Assembly: GCA_963717935.1 (NCBI GenBank)
Contig: CAVQXP010000004.1
Coordinates: 1,824,001-1,888,000 of the forward strand
DNA length: 64,000 bases
Reading direction: 5' to 3'
Origin: Candidatus Eiseniibacteriota bacterium
GTDB taxonomy: Bacteria > Eisenbacteria > RBG-16-71-46
Of the stretch, positions 19,001 to 28,000 are shown piece after piece. Made by a program: the position numbers. How positions within the stretch are numbered: the stretch's first letter is position 1; every line of letters begins with the position of its first letter.

Positions 19001-22000
19001 AGGATGCCCGCGCGGCCTGGGCGCCGTGCCTGCACATCGAGGTGCGGGCGGAGGAGCTCTCGGTGAAATGGCTGGAAGAGGTGGACGAGGTGCTGTCATC
19101 CTGCCCGGGCGGCTCCGAGGTCTACCTGCACGTCATCATGCCCGACTTCTCGCGCAAGGCGAGGCGTTCGCGGCGGTATCGCGTGGCCGAGGACAGCACG
19201 GTGGCCGATTCGCTCCGGCACCGCTTCCCGGGCCTGCGCGCGTTCTGGGGAAAGGGGGCGTCGTGACGACCTCGCTGGGGTTCGAGAAGCCGGTGCTCGA
19301 GCTGGAGCAGCGGATCCAGGAACTCAAGACGCGCGCCGCCGAGAGCGGGCTCGATGCGGGCGCCGAGCTGACGGAGCTCGAACGCAAGGCGGACGAACTG
19401 CGGCGCGAGATCTACGCCGGGCTCACGCCGTTCCAGCGGGTGCAACTGGCGAAGCACCCCAGGCGCCCGTTCAGCCTCGACTACATCCAGGCCTGCTTCA
19501 CCGACTGGACCGAGCTGGCCGGCGACCGCCACTTCGCGGACGACCCGGCGATGGTGACGGGACTCGCGCTGCTGGACGGTCGCCCGGTCATGATCGTGGG
19601 GCAGCAGAAGGGGCGCGACACCAAGGAGAACCTCCACCGCCGCTTCGGCATGTCGAACCCCGAGGGCTACCGCAAGGCGCTCCGCCTGATGAAGCTGGCC
19701 GAGCGCTTCTCGGTGCCGGTGGTCACGCTGGTGGACACCCCGGGCGCCTTTCCCGGGCTGGGGGCCGAGGAGCGCGGCCAGGCCGAGGCGATCGCGGTCA
19801 ACCTGCGCGAGATGGCGCGCCTGCGGGTGCCCATCGTCACGGTCGTCATCGGCGAGGGCGGTTCCGGCGGGGCACTGGGCATCGCCGTGGCGAACGTGGT
19901 GCTGATGTTCGAGAACTCGATCTACTCGGTGATCTCGCCCGAGGGCTGCGCGGCGATCCTGTGGCGCGACCGGGCGCGCGCGCCCGACGCCGCGGAGGCG
20001 CTCAAGCTCACCGCCACGGACCTGATGCGGCTCGAGGTCGTGGAAGGCGTGCTGCCGGAGCCCCTGGGCGGGGCGCACCGCGACCCGGCGGCCGCCGCGG
20101 CCACGCTCAAGGCCGCGCTGATCGCGCAGTTGGACGCGCTGGCGGTGCTGAGCCCGGATGAACTCGTCGAGCAGCGCCTGTCGAGATTCCGGCGCATGGG
20201 CGTCTATCGGGAGGCCGCCGGTTGACCGGTGGAAAACGCGATTGCTAGACTGACCACTGGCTGCGCCGCCCGATTGGCCGGGGTCGCGCGGATGCTCCAG
20301 GCCTTGCCCTGAAGACGACCACGGTCCGCCGTCCCGCCACGTGCCGCGCGAACGCAGGCCACCACGACAACGCGAACGACCGAGGAATCCGATGCCGCTC
20401 AGTCCCGAACTGCTCAGCATCCTGGTGTGTCCCGCGTGCAAGGGCGACCTGGCCTACGAAGAGAACGTCCAGCGCCTCACCTGCAACGCCTGCCGGTTGC
20501 GCTATCGCATCGCGGACGACATCCCTGTGATGCTGGTCGAGGAAGCGGAGAAGTTCTGACCGCCCGCGCCGGTACGCACTCCGCGCCCCGACCCCGCGCC
20601 GTCTTCGGTCCGGCCCTGCTCGCGCTGTCGCTGCTGGCCGGGGGTGGTGCGCCGGTGAGCGCCACTGCCGAGTCGCAGGGCGTGAGGCTCGTGGCTACCG
20701 ACGACGCCATGATCCGCTTCGAGGTGAGCGTGCCGGTCCCGCAGTTCGTGACCGTTCCGGCCGCGGGCGGGACGGAGACCGCGACGCGGCTCGTCCTCGA
20801 GGGCCACGAGAACGCCGTGGGCTCGGTGGACCCGGGTCTGCCGGGCCGCATCGTCGTGCTGGCGGTGCCGCCCCTGGGGGAGATCCGGGTGAGCGCCGTC
20901 GGCGCCGAAGCCGAGGTGCGGGATGCGTTCCTGCTCGCGCCGGCGCCGGGTCTGTCGCCCGAGGACCGCGCGCAGACGCGCCCCGCGGCCGGGACGGACG
21001 CCCAGCCCGGACCGCGCGCGGAACTCCTGGGTGTGGGCTGGCTGCGCAACCAGCGCGTCGCGCGGATCGCCCTCCACCCGGCCGACTACGACGCGGATGC
21101 ACGGCGCCTCGTGCTCTACCGCCGCATCGAGGTCACGGTCGTGGTCGAAGCGGTGGGGGACCTCGGTCCGCCGGCCGAGAGCCCGGACCCGTTCGAAGGC
21201 GTCTACCGGGGCGCCGTGCTCAACTACGAGCAGGGGCGGGGCTGGCGCCGGCCCGAGACGCGGCGGCTGCTGGCGCAGGCGGCCCTGCAGCCCGACCGGC
21301 TCGCGGCGTTCGCGGCGGCGGTGCCCGAGACGAGCGTGTACGTCGGCCGCACCTGGATCAAGTTCGCGGTGACCCGGACCGGCTTCTACAAGGTGGACTA
21401 CGGGCGGCTGCGGACGCTGTCGCTGTTCTCGAACGACACCGACTCGACCGCTGCGTCGCTCGACAGCCTGCGCCTGTTCAACTGGCCGGGTTTCCCGGTG
21501 CTCCCGGTGGGCTCGTACTGCGACTCGTGCGATTACCGCGAGGTGGCCATCGCCTTCGCGGACGACGGGGATGGCCGCTTCCGGACGAACACCGACCAGT
21601 TCTACTTCTTCGCCATGGGGCCGAGCGGCTGGGCGAGCCTCTACGACCCGGCGCGACCGGAGACGGTATTCGTCAACCACCCGTACGAGACGAACAACTA
21701 CTACTACCTGACCCGCGCCACCGAGGAGTCGCCGGTGGGGGGGACGCGAGCACGGATCGCCACGCTGGACGGCACCATCACGAACCCGTCGCTGCCCACG
21801 CCCGTCACCTTCCCCGCGCGCGCCCACCACGAACAGGACACGGAGTACTGGCCCAACGCGTCGCCCCTGTACTCGACCAACGACCGGCAGCTCTTCTGGG
21901 AGAAGTGGTTCTGGCAGGCGGTCTCGCCGGGCGGGTCGTTCCGCGTGCCGCCGGTGGACCTGCCGGGCGCCGACACCACGCAGTCCGCCCGGATCCGAGC

Positions 22001-25000: not shown

Positions 25001-28000
25001 TTTCAATGTCACCGCACTCGCTCTCATGGCCGGGCTCGTGCTTGCGGCACCGGCTTTCGCGCAGGGAACCGGCCGTTCCCTGGACATCCAGCCCGGTGCC
25101 CGGGAGAACGGCATGGGAGCGGCGGGCGTGGCCCTCGCGGACGATGCCACGGGGATGACCTGGTGGAACCCGGCGGGGCTGGGCTTCGCCAAGCGCCCCG
25201 GTCTGCAGATGACCAACGCGAAGCTCGTGCCCGGGCTCGCGGACGACGTGTCTTACAACCACGTGGCCTATGCCCATCCCATGGAGGGCTGGGGCGGACT
25301 GGCCCTGTCCGTCTCATTTCTCTCCTATGGGACCAGCATCCAGACCGACATCTCCGGCAACGAGGGGTTCGCCTTCGACTCCTACGAGGCTTCCTCGGGC
25401 CTCTCCTACGGGGTCGAATTGCTGCCCGACCTGGCGATCGGCGCCAGCGTCAAGTACATCCATATCCAGTTGGCGCCCACAAGCTTGCAGGGTGTGGCGT
25501 CGGCGCTGGGCTTTGACCTCGGGTGCCTGTATCGCCTCCAGCCCGCGCACGTGCGGCTCGGCGCCAGCGTGCAGAACCTCGGTCCGAGCGTGGTGTTCAT
25601 CAACGAGGATCTGGCGAGCCCGCTCTCGCGGAACGTCAAGGCCGGTTTTGCCTGGGAGCCGATCAACCGCAGCGGTCTCACCTCCACGGTGGCCGGGGAC
25701 TTCAACCAGTCGCTCGTGACCACGCGATTCCGCACCTACCACGGCGGGCTCGAGGTGAAGTACTCCACCCAGACGGACAAGGCGACCGGCGGGGTCGGAC
25801 TTGCCGGCCGCTTCGGCTACTACTACGACCCGCTCGGCGAGATCAAGGACCTGACCTACGGTCTGGGCCTCAGCTGGGGGAGCCTGACGCTGGACTACGG
25901 CTCGCTGCCGCAGGCCACCACGCTCCCGCATGTCGAGAAGATCAGCCTGGGCTACCGCTTCTGAGGCGTCCCGGCGGCAGCGGGACGAGACCCGTGCGCG
26001 GCGTCTTCCTTGCAACCCTGCTGGTCCTGGCGCTCCTGCCGTCCGCGGCGCTCCCCGCGCGGGCGGCAGGAACGCTGAAGGTGCGCCGGGTTGCCCGTGC
26101 CGAGGACGTCGCGCGGCTGCAGCGCCTGGGTCTGCCGGCCCCACTCGCAGTTCGCCCCGAGGAAGCGCACATCCAGGCCGAGCGCGAGCGGCGCTGGCGC
26201 TCGATGCGCGACCTGCTCACCGCCCCGGGGGTGGACTGGTCGCTGCAGGCGCAGCGCCGCACGGGTTGGCGGCCCGCCGTGCAGCCGGCGCGCGACCCGC
26301 GGGCGGCCGCGGCGCGCGCGGTCGGCGTGGTCGCGGAGACGCCGCCCGAGACCCTGCGGGTCGCGTTCATCCGCATCGACTTCCTGAGTGACCGCGGTGG
26401 CTCCGCCTCCACCGGGGATGGTCGCTTCGACCTCTCGGGGCCCGACACGAATGCCGTGCCGATCGACCCGCCGCCGCACGACCGCGCCTTCTTCCAGGCG
26501 CATCTCGAGGCCCTCGCGCGTTACTACGACGCCACCTCCTACGGGCGCGTGGTCGTGGTCGGCGAGGTCTGGCCCCGCGACGCGACTGCGGCCTACTCGC
26601 TCAGCGACATGGCCGACTACGGTCCCTGGGCCTTCAGCCAGGAGATCTACCGCGCCGCGGTCCACATGTTCCGCGACATGTTCTTCGCCGCCGACACGCA
26701 GTCCGCGGCGCGCGGCGACCCCATCCCCTGGGACGACTACGACCGCTACTACCTGATCCACGCCGGAAGCGACCTGCAGAGCGACGTGCGGCAGGACAGC
26801 GAGGAGGACATCCCCTCGTTCACGATCGGCGTGGCCGACACGGACGTGGTGATCTTCCCCGACTCCACCAACCGCCCCATCGACCGGGCCACGATCGTGC
26901 CCGAGCTGGGCGGGCAGGATGGCTACTACGGGGCCATCAACGGCGTCATCGTGCACGAGTCGGGGCACAACCTGCTCGGTCTCGCGGACCTCTACAACGT
27001 CGATACGGGCTACCCGGTGGTGGGCTACTGGAGCCTGATGGACAGCGGGAACCTGCTGGGTTCGCGCGTGACGCTGAAGGACGGCACCGAGATCTACGCC
27101 ACCGGCCTGCTGCCCCCCAGCGTGGACCCGTGGCAGCGCGCCTTCGCGACCGACGTCCTGGCGTTCCCCGAGGTGGACTACGGAGGAAGCCCGGACTCGC
27201 TCGCCGACAGCGAGCGCCACCCGGACGTGCGGCGGGTCACGCTCTCGAGCGACGAGTACCTGCTGCTCGAGAACCGGCATCTCGCGGCGGCGGACACGGT
27301 CCTGCTGGACCAGGATTCGACCACCCGCGTCATCCTCGGACCGAAGAGCCCGGACCGCTATGAGTACGACGCGCTGCTGCCCGGCAGCGGGATCCTGGTC
27401 TGGCACATCGACGAGAGCGTGATCCCCTTCGAGACGTCACTGCGCGTCAACCCGGGCTTCGGCTTCAACACGAACCCGCAGCGCCTCGCGGTGTCGGTCG
27501 TCGAGGGCGACGGGCTCGCGGACCTGGGCGATGCCGGTTCGCCCTACTTCCTTGGCGCGCCCTTCGACCCGTGGTTCGTCAGCAACAACGCGACGCTCTC
27601 GGACTCGACCTTCCCGAACCTGATCCCGCACACCGGGACGCGGCCGCACAAGCGGCTCGACTTCCTCGACGACCCGGCGCTGCTCATGCACTTCAGCGCC
27701 CGGCGCGCGTGGGCGCTGGAAGGCTGGCCGGTCAGCGCGGACTTCCCGCCCGGTGGACCGCAACTGCTCGCGGTGGACGCGGACGGCGACCGGGGGCTGG
27801 ACGTCTGCTGGGCAGGTGGTCGCGATTCGATCGACGTGCTGGCGGCCGACGAGGTCGTGCGCGTGGCGAACCCCGACAGCGCCGCGCTCTTCGCGGTGCG
27901 TCCGGACGGGCTCGCGCTCGACGGCACGAGCGCCTACGCGTTCGCGCAACTCGACCGCAGGCCGCGGCCCGAAGTGGCGGCGCTCGCCCGGGGTGACTCG

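Follow-up and report, generated by a model that had tools for sequence, protein, structure and literature searches.

The porU and porV genes described here, from the genome of a Candidatus Eiseniibacteriota bacterium, belong to an apparent type IX secretion system whose outer-membrane parts, regulator PorX and cargo are kept. Sequence searches support the conclusion that homologues of the motor and ring proteins GldK, GldL, GldM and GldN are absent from this genome and across the phylum Eisenbacteria, of which we know of no cultured member. Our preferred reading, to which we give even odds, is a genuine type IX variant, in which the porU-porV operon would act in a working secretion and sorting pathway devoid of homologues of the GldL/GldM motor and the GldK/GldN ring. 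Coordinates given without a contig name refer to the window, a 64,000-nucleotide stretch of contig CAVQXP010000004.1.

The porU-porV pair heads a conserved outer-membrane operon

As the survey had indicated, a gene for PorU and one for a PorV-family barrel adjoin at 20655..25964. PorU (20655..24815, + strand), the C25-family sortase or C-terminal signal peptidase of type IX secretion, lies in the open frame 20427..24815 with its residue 1 at 20655. It passes the cut-off of NF033707 (486.5 bits for a cut-off of 420, E 1.4e-145), matches Peptidase_C25 (E 1.5e-69) and Propeptide_C25, and carries an FlgD_ig-type tail of its own. Its catalytic pair, His891 and Cys925, is invariant in an alignment of 30 sequences, and 324 relatives were found at E<=1e-10. 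The PorV-family outer-membrane barrel, a putative cargo shuttle (24864..25964, + strand), scores 146.6 bits against NF033709 (cut-off 90) and 34.3 bits against PF19572, and stays below the cut-offs of the PorV equivalog (81.3 vs 250) and of PorQ (70.8 vs 220). Its gene directly follows porU on the 3' side in 53 of 77 related loci. Both the shuttle and the sortase of the type IX system, as defined in Bacteroidota, are present.

The same 77 loci revealed that porU-porV is the head of a conserved outer-membrane operon, whose gene order is conserved across phyla and which also codes for an M6-like tailed protein, a small helical protein, an NHL propeller and a giant SprA-like barrel. The M6-like metalloprotease-type protein (26000..29365, + strand, start approximate) contains FG-GAP repeats and ends in a type-A sorting tail; it matches Peptidase_M6, FG-GAP_3, TIGR03296 and, at 163.4 bits for a cut-off of 600, NF052323, with a weak TIGR04183 match. 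This family lies 3' of porV in 39 loci, and the HExxH motif, kept in the window's protein, occurs in 17 of the 32 members of full length. The next gene (29362..30168, + strand), also a conserved operon member, codes for X300, a small secreted helical protein weakly like DUF5683, whose family occurs in 24 loci, often as two tandem copies. The window's copy has no Pfam or NCBIfam match, and its relatives match PF18935 at E 1.6e-5 to 3e-3. An AF2 model of X300 (pLDDT 83.8) retrieved no specific fold match, and comparison by hhalign led us to reject the protein as a GldL or a GldM. The NHL-repeat beta-propeller protein (31109..32131, + strand; PF01436, E 6.7e-21) bears a signal peptide, and its family occupies the same operon place in 10 loci.

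In this assembly, frameshifts interrupt the giant outer-membrane beta-barrel (BIG; 32135..35900, + strand, end approximate), whose family was found in 13 loci. Neither the window's copy nor its relatives have a Pfam match, and against the SprA models TIGR04189 and SprA_N it falls short of sequence membership, with only 16-17 bits at 33047-33205. Upon hhalign comparison with an intact Eisenbacteria SprA, the family shared one domain of ~105 residues (probability 91.8%, E 7.4e-7). The AF2 model of a relative, P0270, is all-beta (pLDDT 74.4), and its best Foldseek matches are the SprA chains 8gl8_A (E 1.3e-9) and 6h3i_A (E 1.8e-8); the top SprA chains overall range from E 1e-9 to 6e-7, yet have TM-scores of 0.15-0.29. 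An Omp85/BamA-like barrel (35757..37243, + strand), likewise frameshifted in this assembly, follows; TIGR03303 matches it with 43.3 bits on 35757-36851, and its C-terminal piece, 36272-37243, was assigned by eye. In the operon of other lineages, the Omp85 barrel is fused to a TolB-type PD40 propeller.

SprA, PorX, PorV paralogues and cargo are encoded elsewhere in the genome

The SprA translocon, also part of the Bacteroidota definition, is present and was recovered, as described by the survey, as six collinear pieces at C4:1327229-1331736 covering positions 13-1612 of TIGR04189. These pieces lie in several frames and score 129, 111, 74.5, 63.6, 37 and 18 bits, each under the 200-bit cut-off; as two ORF pieces, the protein reaches 171.3 and 91.7 bits. 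The breaks coincide with places at which the contigs of 2-4 independent public runs are one base shorter, so the frameshifts are most likely assembly errors, as the survey had assumed. In relatives, sprA is a single open frame of 2119-2352 aa. PorX, a further component of the definition, is encoded at C4:1175577-1177118 and scores 623.2 bits against NF052313 (cut-off 300). The survey had counted four PorV/PorQ-family loci; several paralogues do exist, and the count rises to five over the cut-off, including the one in the window, plus one weak match. Two of the paralogues adjoin genes for CarboxypepD_reg/TonB-dependent-receptor-like barrels and tailed proteins (C4 ~997-1004 kb and C5 17.8-24.6 kb). 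PorP/SprF (PF11751) had no match at E<=1, and PorZ produced weak tail matches only.

The estimate of some 46 predicted cargo proteins with a type-A tail is in line with our counts. Trained on 30 of the genome's own tails, an HMM retrieved 53 six-frame ORFs at E<=1e-3, PorU among them, and a tail regex gave 38 matches, about 33 of which look real by eye. FlgD_ig, Por_Secre_tail and TIGR04183 match the cargo proteins that were sampled. Cargo with a type-A sorting domain, another element of the Bacteroidota definition, is present. One example in the window is a predicted S8 subtilase with a type-A sorting tail (9714..13100, + strand; Peptidase_S8, E 2.4e-40; FlgD_ig, E 5e-7), which the genome's own tail HMM matches at 77 bits.

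Homologues of the motor and ring were not found

Neither the proton-driven motor, GldL/PorL-GldM/PorM, nor the periplasmic ring, GldK/PorK-GldN/PorN, was recovered from this genome. Searches with NCBIfam and Pfam models and unfiltered six-frame searches all bear out the reported absence of GldL, GldM and GldN. TIGR03517 (GldM) had no match at E<=10 and TIGR03523 (GldN) had none in this genome, while TIGR03513 (GldL) had a single match of 13.4 bits (E 0.068), a threshold at which 10 of 14 control genomes also respond. The Pfam families GldM_1st (PF12081), GldL_N (PF22827) and GldN (PF19841) found nothing here, nor did hmmsearch --max for GldL, GldM or GldN over 18,284 six-frame ORFs (best E >= 2; for the motor proteins GldL and GldM, no better than 2.5). 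For GldK/PorK, only the generic FGE-sulfatase match already noted by the survey was seen, a lone gene with 89.4 and 29.4 bits against TIGR03525 (cut-off 350) and no GldL-, GldM- or GldN-like neighbours. The same models and tool find all four genes in two controls, G009 and G010, where they form gldKLMN operons, and in the phylum of G009, 30 of 121 genomes have a GldM_1st match of 33-194 bits. These results are to be read with the family models in mind, which were built mainly from Bacteroidia, and with the coarse first pass of the genome-set profile search, which may miss distant relatives; GldL is a small protein, and none of the tests applied would catch an inner-membrane partner that is unrelated or has diverged very far.

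We also searched by neighbourhood and architecture. No membrane motor-like gene was found near porU/porV in 77 loci, near sprA in 21 or near porX in 23. Screens by architecture, in which a two-helix protein had to precede a one-helix protein, returned nothing credible; since the assembly has many frameshifts, broken genes could escape such ORF-based screens, though not the six-frame HMM searches. The MotA/ExbB/TolQ family has just two genes in this genome, which belong to a Tol-Pal cluster and to an ExbB-ExbD-ExbD-TonB cluster, respectively; five TonB_C proteins exceed the cut-off.

The absence extends across the phylum and beyond

The survey had found the motor genes missing from sampled Eisenbacteria, which holds in a larger set of 206 genomes, 121 of them at least 90% complete: GldM_1st, GldL_N and GldN exceed their cut-offs in none. 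As PorU is present in 204 of these 206 genomes, and in all 121 of good quality, the missing motor is not an assembly hole. This pattern is, as judged from sequence, not special to Eisenbacteria. In a set of 39 genomes with PorU that spans more than ten lineages by label and includes the closed Eisenbacteria chromosome G001, GldK, GldL, GldM and GldN are absent in 37, the exceptions being two Bacteroidia controls. GldL_N found nothing at E<=10 in the sampled Kapaibacterium and Ignavibacteria genomes. SprA accompanies PorU in 34 of 37 genomes sampled, and PorX, over its cut-off, in 33 of 36 carriers.

Comparison with known systems

The system resembles the type IX systems of Bacteroidota, namely PorK/L/M/N-Sov-PorV-PorU-PorX of Porphyromonas gingivalis and GldK/L/M/N-SprA of Flavobacterium johnsoniae, in its SprA/Sov translocon, its PorV-family shuttle, its PorU C25 sortase with Cys and His, its PorX response regulator, which has a PglZ domain, and the type-A C-terminal sorting domains that many unrelated secreted proteins carry. 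It differs from them by lacking GldL/PorL, GldM/PorM, GldN/PorN, a true GldK/PorK and PorP/SprF, with PorZ reduced to weak tail matches, and by joining porU-porV to the M6-like tailed protein, the helical protein, the NHL propeller, the half-size SprA-like barrel and the Omp85 barrel. The 'putative type IX sorting system' of NCBIfam (PorU2 NF052324, PorV2 NF052325, M6-like NF052323) is another relative, as PorU, the C1 PorV paralogue and the post-PorV protein all match its models. However, all three scores are far below the cut-offs: PorU reaches 112 bits against NF052324 (cut-off 450) and passes the classical PorU model instead, the C1 paralogue reaches 148 bits against NF052325 (cut-off 325), and the score of the post-PorV protein against NF052323 is given above. 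Moreover, NF052323 describes a 'T9SS-dependent M6-like inactivated metalloprotease', whereas the window's M6-like protein keeps HExxH. Our literature search found no paper on these three models. Outside the classical Bacteroidetes, type IX-type export was proposed in Fibrobacter succinogenes (PMC6851124), and BLAST hints of type IX secretion were reported in Chlorobi, Fibrobacteres and Ignavibacteriae (PMC5837995). These cases share with ours the type-A tails on secreted enzymes; the relevant passages of the two papers neither list the machinery nor mention a missing motor.

Discussion

From the parts list, its conservation, the catalytic residues and the absence of GldKLMN, all of them observed, we infer an export route by homology. 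Roughly fifty proteins, each bearing a Sec signal and a type-A C-terminal domain, would enter the periplasm and cross the outer membrane via SprA, perhaps also via the half-size SprA-like barrel of the porU operon. PorV-family barrels would then receive the cargo, and PorU, with its Cys/His pair intact, would remove the tail and probably anchor the protein, while PorX would act as the regulator. On the question of energy, we lean towards the lack of a dedicated trans-envelope motor, in which case the release of PorV-cargo from SprA may be made one-way by PorU, through cleavage and anchoring, together with the additional outer-membrane proteins that the operon encodes. Such a motor-free version is without experimental precedent, because in Flavobacterium the motor is needed for this release, as reported in PMC10994853.

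A dedicated inner-membrane energiser whose genes lie apart from porU, porV, sprA and porX, be it a GldLM relative too diverged to be recognised by sequence or an unrelated substitute, seems rather unlikely but deserves weight. PorX binds PorL in P. gingivalis, and its strong conservation here could hint at an unseen inner-membrane partner. Export of folded cargo also needs proton motive force in the systems that have been studied, according to a review (PMC11205867). Yet HMMs, including the unfiltered search, architecture screens and synteny around the four core genes gave nothing, the GldL_N search was blank in the sampled Kapaibacterium and Ignavibacteria genomes, and X300 is neither GldL nor GldM. 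We find it improbable that the energy is borrowed from a general envelope motor, be it Tol-Pal or the one ExbB-ExbD-TonB set, which has five TonB-type proteins. These are the genome's only 5:2-type motors, two PorV paralogues lie beside TonB-dependent-receptor-like barrels and tailed proteins, the Omp85 barrel of other lineages is fused to a TolB-type propeller, and Myxococcus exports a protease through a TonB-dependent transporter. However, nearly all diderm bacteria have Ton and Tol, so that finding them here is not informative, and neither system has a gene linked to sprA, porU/porV or porX; a PorV paralogue is found 7 kb from the C5 Tol cluster, but is separated from it by glycolysis genes and secG.

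It is very improbable that these genes are relics or have a different role, such as surface anchoring only or outer-membrane upkeep, with the tailed proteins not exported this way. The frameshifts in the sprA, giant barrel and Omp85 genes could suggest decay, but they coincide with single-base differences from the contigs of 2-4 independent runs, and SprA is intact in relatives. The near-universal occurrence of PorU with its catalytic pair intact, the tail kept on ~50 unrelated proteins and the operon order conserved across phyla also speak against decay. Least plausible, with hardly any weight, is that GldKLMN lies in the unassembled 7% of this genome, which is 93.07% complete: as the survey had argued, the same absence in other genomes, here 0 of 206 in the phylum and the single-contig relative G001, argues against a gap.

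Returning to the motor-free reading, we lean towards the GldKLMN module being a Bacteroidia addition outside the ancestral core. In its broadest form, which we advance tentatively and rate somewhat short of even, SprA-PorV-PorU-PorX would be self-sufficient without a dedicated proton-driven motor, both in Eisenbacteria and in genomes that bear the labels Ignavibacteria, Rhodothermales, Calditrichota, KSB1, Cloacimonadota, Gemmatimonadota and others; the role of the motor would fall to the conserved porU operon and its half-size SprA-like barrel, and GldLM/GldKN would be a later Bacteroidia add-on, perhaps linked to gliding. If this is true, the GldLM/GldKN motor and ring would not be the core of the type IX system.

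Results

The sortase gene porU of the window adjoins a gene for a PorV-family shuttle barrel, as the survey's finding had it, and both score above the cut-offs of their family models. Read from position 20655, the porU ORF (20427..24815, plus strand) matches NF033707 with 486.5 bits (E 1.4e-145, cut-off 420), and its product contains Propeptide_C25 and Peptidase_C25 domains as well as an FlgD_ig tail; His891 and Cys925 are invariant in an alignment of 30 sequences from relatives of 23-52% identity. The barrel gene (ORF 24864..25964, plus strand) matches NF033709 with 146.6 bits (cut-off 90) and lies below both the PorV and the PorQ equivalog cut-offs. 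Upstream of the pair are dnaE and accA. The window (C4:1824001-1888000) belongs to an assembly of 3.02 Mb in 5 contigs (completeness 93.07%, contamination 2.56%), and the G+C content is 66-76%. PorU has 324 relatives at E≤1e-10 (90% clusters) and 11,110 at E≤1e-3 among 50% representatives; within the best 120 of the 324, most of those that bear a name are labelled Eisenbacteria.

Elsewhere in the genome, the previously reported regulator PorX (C4:1175577-1177118) scores 623.2 bits against NF052313, for which the cut-off is 300. Several PorV-family paralogues had likewise been described and are present, but the count of four did not hold, as five loci exceed the cut-off: that of the window, C5:17813-18661, C4:999979-1000866, C2:125823-126647 and C1:104838-105773; one further locus is weak. 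A model of the type-A C-terminal sorting domain built from 30 tails of the genome itself has 53 matches at E≤1e-3 among the six-frame ORFs, including PorU. Two of the PorV-family paralogues (C4:997078-1004119 and C5:16315-24609) adjoin barrels resembling CarboxypepD_reg/TonB-dependent receptors, tailed proteins and a protein of NHL or GWxTD type; these neighbourhoods look like further outer-membrane modules. By eye, a run of genes at 51669-64491 of the window, with secretion-ATPase-like ends, resembles type IV pilus genes and includes two pilin-like N-termini at 59311-60391; a second putative pilus-type set, with T2SSE ATPases, adjoins the paralogue on C2.

The translocon gene sprA (C4:1327229-1331736) matches its model in six collinear pieces, with the frame changing between pieces. 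We compared it with contigs from four public sediment-metagenome runs that are 90 to >99% alike; some runs have no cover over parts of sprA, and such gaps carry no meaning. The public contigs are one base shorter at positions 10442, 11127, 11439/40 and 13031 of the sprA locus L020, each difference being backed by 2-4 runs and all of them falling at frame changes between the pieces. Since the breaks coincide with these single-base differences, the comparison suggests that the frameshifts are indel errors of this assembly, which upholds the earlier explanation of the split gene. In three Eisenbacteria relatives, sprA is a single open frame of 2119-2352 aa. Frameshifts break up many genes: sprA (C4:1327016-1333291), a gene for a predicted giant barrel and an Omp85 gene (32135-37243 of the window), and, at C4:997078-999872 and C5:7340-8657, a TonB-dependent receptor gene and probably tolB.

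The genome had been said to lack GldL, GldM and GldN and to match GldK through generic FGE-sulfatases only, and family models bear this out. GldM (TIGR03517) has no match in the genome at E≤10, GldN (TIGR03523) has none, and neither do the Pfam families GldM_1st, GldL_N and GldN. The GldL model (TIGR03513) yields 13.4 bits at C4:462266, which we discarded, the same threshold being triggered in 10 of 14 control genomes. The sole match to GldK (TIGR03525) is one FGE-sulfatase gene (C4:753504-754313; 89.4 + 29.4 bits, cut-off 350), rejected as a hidden gldK for want of L/M/N-like neighbours; by eye, those it has code for a diadenylate-cyclase-type membrane protein and a dihydropteroate synthase. 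Because the genome profile search starts with a loose first look, we also made small HMMs of our own, with two true gldKLMN operons as their source, and used them in hmmsearch --max against all 18,284 six-frame ORFs with a length of 80 aa or more. This check recovered the FGE-sulfatase alone, the best E for L, M and N being 2 or worse.

The same absence extends over the phylum, as had been claimed from a smaller sample. We searched 206 Eisenbacteria genomes, of which 121 have a completeness of 90% or more and a contamination of 5% or less. GldM_1st exceeds its cut-off in none of the 206 (one match at 17 bits), and GldL_N and GldN are each found in 0 of 206; PorU at E≤1e-20 is present in 204 of the 206 and in all 121 of good quality. 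These four counts include one unpublished genome.

We gathered 77 loci from named public genomes with an alignment of five PorU sequences, two loci from unpublished genomes being included, and searched 39 genomes, 38 from the PorU loci and the one studied here, with the family models. Only in two Bacteroidia controls, labelled Cytophagales and Sphingobacteriales, were GldM (TIGR03517, 2/38; PF12081, 2/39), GldL_N, GldN and true GldK (2/39 each) above cut-off, and in both the genes are arranged as gldK-L-M-N operons. Two of the 39 genomes are unpublished; leaving them out gives 2/37, or 2/36 for TIGR03517. Looser thresholds add a few weak matches of 14-19 bits, and generic FGE-sulfatases match in 20/39. 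In the phylum of the Cytophagales-labelled control, GldM_1st was detected in 30 of 121 sampled genomes at 33-194 bits, and the pipeline therefore reaches beyond near-identical GldM. The 37 PorU-carrying genomes negative for GldKLMN bear labels that include Eisenbacteria, Ignavibacteria, Rhodothermales, Cloacimonadota, Calditrichota, KSB1, Raymondbacteria, Gemmatimonadota, Krumholzibacteriia, Zixibacteria, Kapaibacterium and 'Bacteroidota/Cytophagia', some of which may be wrong, as labels of MAGs. Among PorU-carrying genomes, SprA_N is present in 34/37, in open frames of 1143-2641 aa, and PorX exceeds its cut-off in 33/36. A Kapaibacterium genome and four genomes of Ignavibacteria yielded no GldL_N match at E≤10. 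We take Rhodothermus and Salinibacter to be carriers of gldKLMN; the genes were not found in two MAGs labelled Rhodothermales. This variant of type IX secretion, without GldKLMN homologues, is phylogenetically widespread.

We then considered what might stand in for the motor. The genome contains only two MotA/ExbB/TolQ genes, which rules out a third motor of this type: one belongs to a Tol set on C5 (TolQ-TolR-TolA(TonB_2)-...-Pal-CpoB) and the other to a Ton set on C4 (ExbB-ExbD-ExbD-TonB). Five TonB_C proteins are over cut-off. No inner-membrane family resembling a motor turned up by synteny in the neighbourhoods of PorU/PorV (77 loci), SprA (21) or PorX (23). Screens by architecture for two-helix plus one-helix pairs, in which a GldM-like protein with a single helix comes after a hairpin protein like GldL, produced false leads alone; none of the candidates (in the window, X300, a small secreted helical protein, and the NHL protein; on C5, CpoB; on C1, a pair of cargo genes) is GldLM-like. 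The gene after porX, considered as a PorY/PorL-like membrane protein, codes for TsaB and a GNAT acetyltransferase and is followed by accD.

These neighbourhoods have recurrent features of their own. Divergently transcribed lptF and lptG flank sprA in 12 of 21 loci from several lineages (here C4:1324372-1334251; elsewhere L147-L166), an arrangement that may tie the translocon to LPS export, and an M28-type peptidase gene lies downstream of sprA in 11 of 21, again in several lineages. Downstream of porX are a family of about 157 aa (14/23 loci), a TsaB-like family (17/23) and AccD (16/23; here C4:1174734-1179911, elsewhere L168-L187); this set occurs in GldKLMN-negative genomes but is absent from both Bacteroidia controls. 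The distance between porX and sprA is about 2.4 kb in two comparison genomes (G011 and G013).

The porU operon itself has a conserved order. Across the 77 loci, porU is followed by PorV (53), a tailed M6-like protein (about 1030 aa; 39), X300 in a single or a double copy (about 300 aa; 24), an NHL propeller (10) and BIG, a predicted giant barrel (about 1200 aa; 13). The order PorU-PorV-M6-X300-X300-NHL-BIG is repeated in three Ignavibacteria-labelled loci (L053, L062, L094), and the window holds the full set with a single X300. In some lineages (10/77 loci), the gene that comes after the M6-like one codes for an Omp85 barrel with fused PD40 repeats and a region like Peptidase_MA. The M6-like protein of the window (26000-29365) is one of 17 among 32 full-length members (loci L021-L097) that keep HExxH; the motif is kept where the X300, NHL and BIG genes come next and lost where the fused Omp85 barrel is present. 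Because of its propeller repeats and retained tail, this protein could play a PorZ-like role.

X300 (29362-30168) has a signal peptide, and AF2 (pLDDT 83.8) models it with a confident helical-hairpin domain and, at the C-terminus, a beta hairpin. In the family, the motifs PGxGQ, Glu and NH..SA.DA are near-invariant; its genes often come as a tandem pair behind the one for the M6-like protein, and weak similarity to DUF5683 is shown by relatives only. We rejected it as a diverged GldM or GldL (hhalign 0.2% and 0.1%; Foldseek against GldM/PorM periplasmic domains such as 6ey4, 7sb2 and 7cmg, E>1 and TM 0.15-0.2). A wide VIA search returned generic coiled coils (Z at most 7.8), no specific structural relative was found with Foldseek or VIA, and a PDB sequence search gave no match. 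BIG (32135 to about 35900; relative P0270, L066:18208-21993) is a predicted outer-membrane barrel of about 1175 aa that matches no Pfam family and is all-beta in the model of P0270 (pLDDT 74.4). It probably has one domain of about 105 residues in common with SprA (hhalign 91.8%). SprA chains are its best Foldseek matches (E 1.3e-9 to 5.6e-7, at low TM-scores of 0.15-0.29), ahead of SusC, SlpA and TonB-dependent receptors, and SprA is a sub-threshold lead in the ESM Atlas (0.87). On these models, BIG may be a compact second translocon.

Discussion

In recent accounts, type IX secretion has its core and its energy source in the GldLM/PorLM motor together with the PorKN ring (PMC11205867, PMC10994853, PMC12365241, PMC8754138). 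The system described here has five hallmark parts in common with that of Bacteroidota, which it would resemble in function, but lacks homologues of this motor and ring. Possible type IX systems are mentioned for Fibrobacter (PMC6851124) and for Chlorobi and Ignavibacteriae (PMC5837995), with no list of the machinery in the parts consulted. In the literature searched, in which subscription journals are largely missing, we found no statement of a motor-less form or of this gap.

The outer-membrane parts are present and conserved, the PorU dyad is intact, and the genome has no homologue of GldKLMN. If the Bacteroidota system is a guide, tailed cargo would be exported by Sec, cross by way of SprA, and possibly of BIG, and be handed over to PorV, after which PorU would remove the tail and anchor the protein.

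The lack of GldKLMN homologues is confirmed as an observation, and the earlier reading, that motor and ring are missing or replaced beyond recognition, is supported. Our preferred view, to which we give about an even chance, is that the system has no dedicated motor. A dedicated motor that escapes the models is a less likely alternative; neither synteny nor architecture screens produced a candidate. The Ton or Tol motor, both of which the genome encodes, might have been borrowed; we consider this unlikely, no Ton or Tol gene being linked to sprA, porU/porV or porX. That the parts are a non-secretory remnant seems very improbable beside an intact dyad and dozens of tailed proteins, and a gap in a 93.07% complete assembly is scarcely credible as the cause of an absence found throughout the phylum.

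If it is true that this entire phylum and many of its neighbours export dozens of tailed proteins with no more than the outer-membrane half and PorX, then the translocon can either do without energy coupling or draw on a second, unknown power source. A defined group of partner genes, so far unstudied, also emerges as a target for tests. The criteria by which 'T9SS' is annotated outside Bacteroidia would then need changing, and either outcome would alter views of the mechanism and evolution of type IX secretion.
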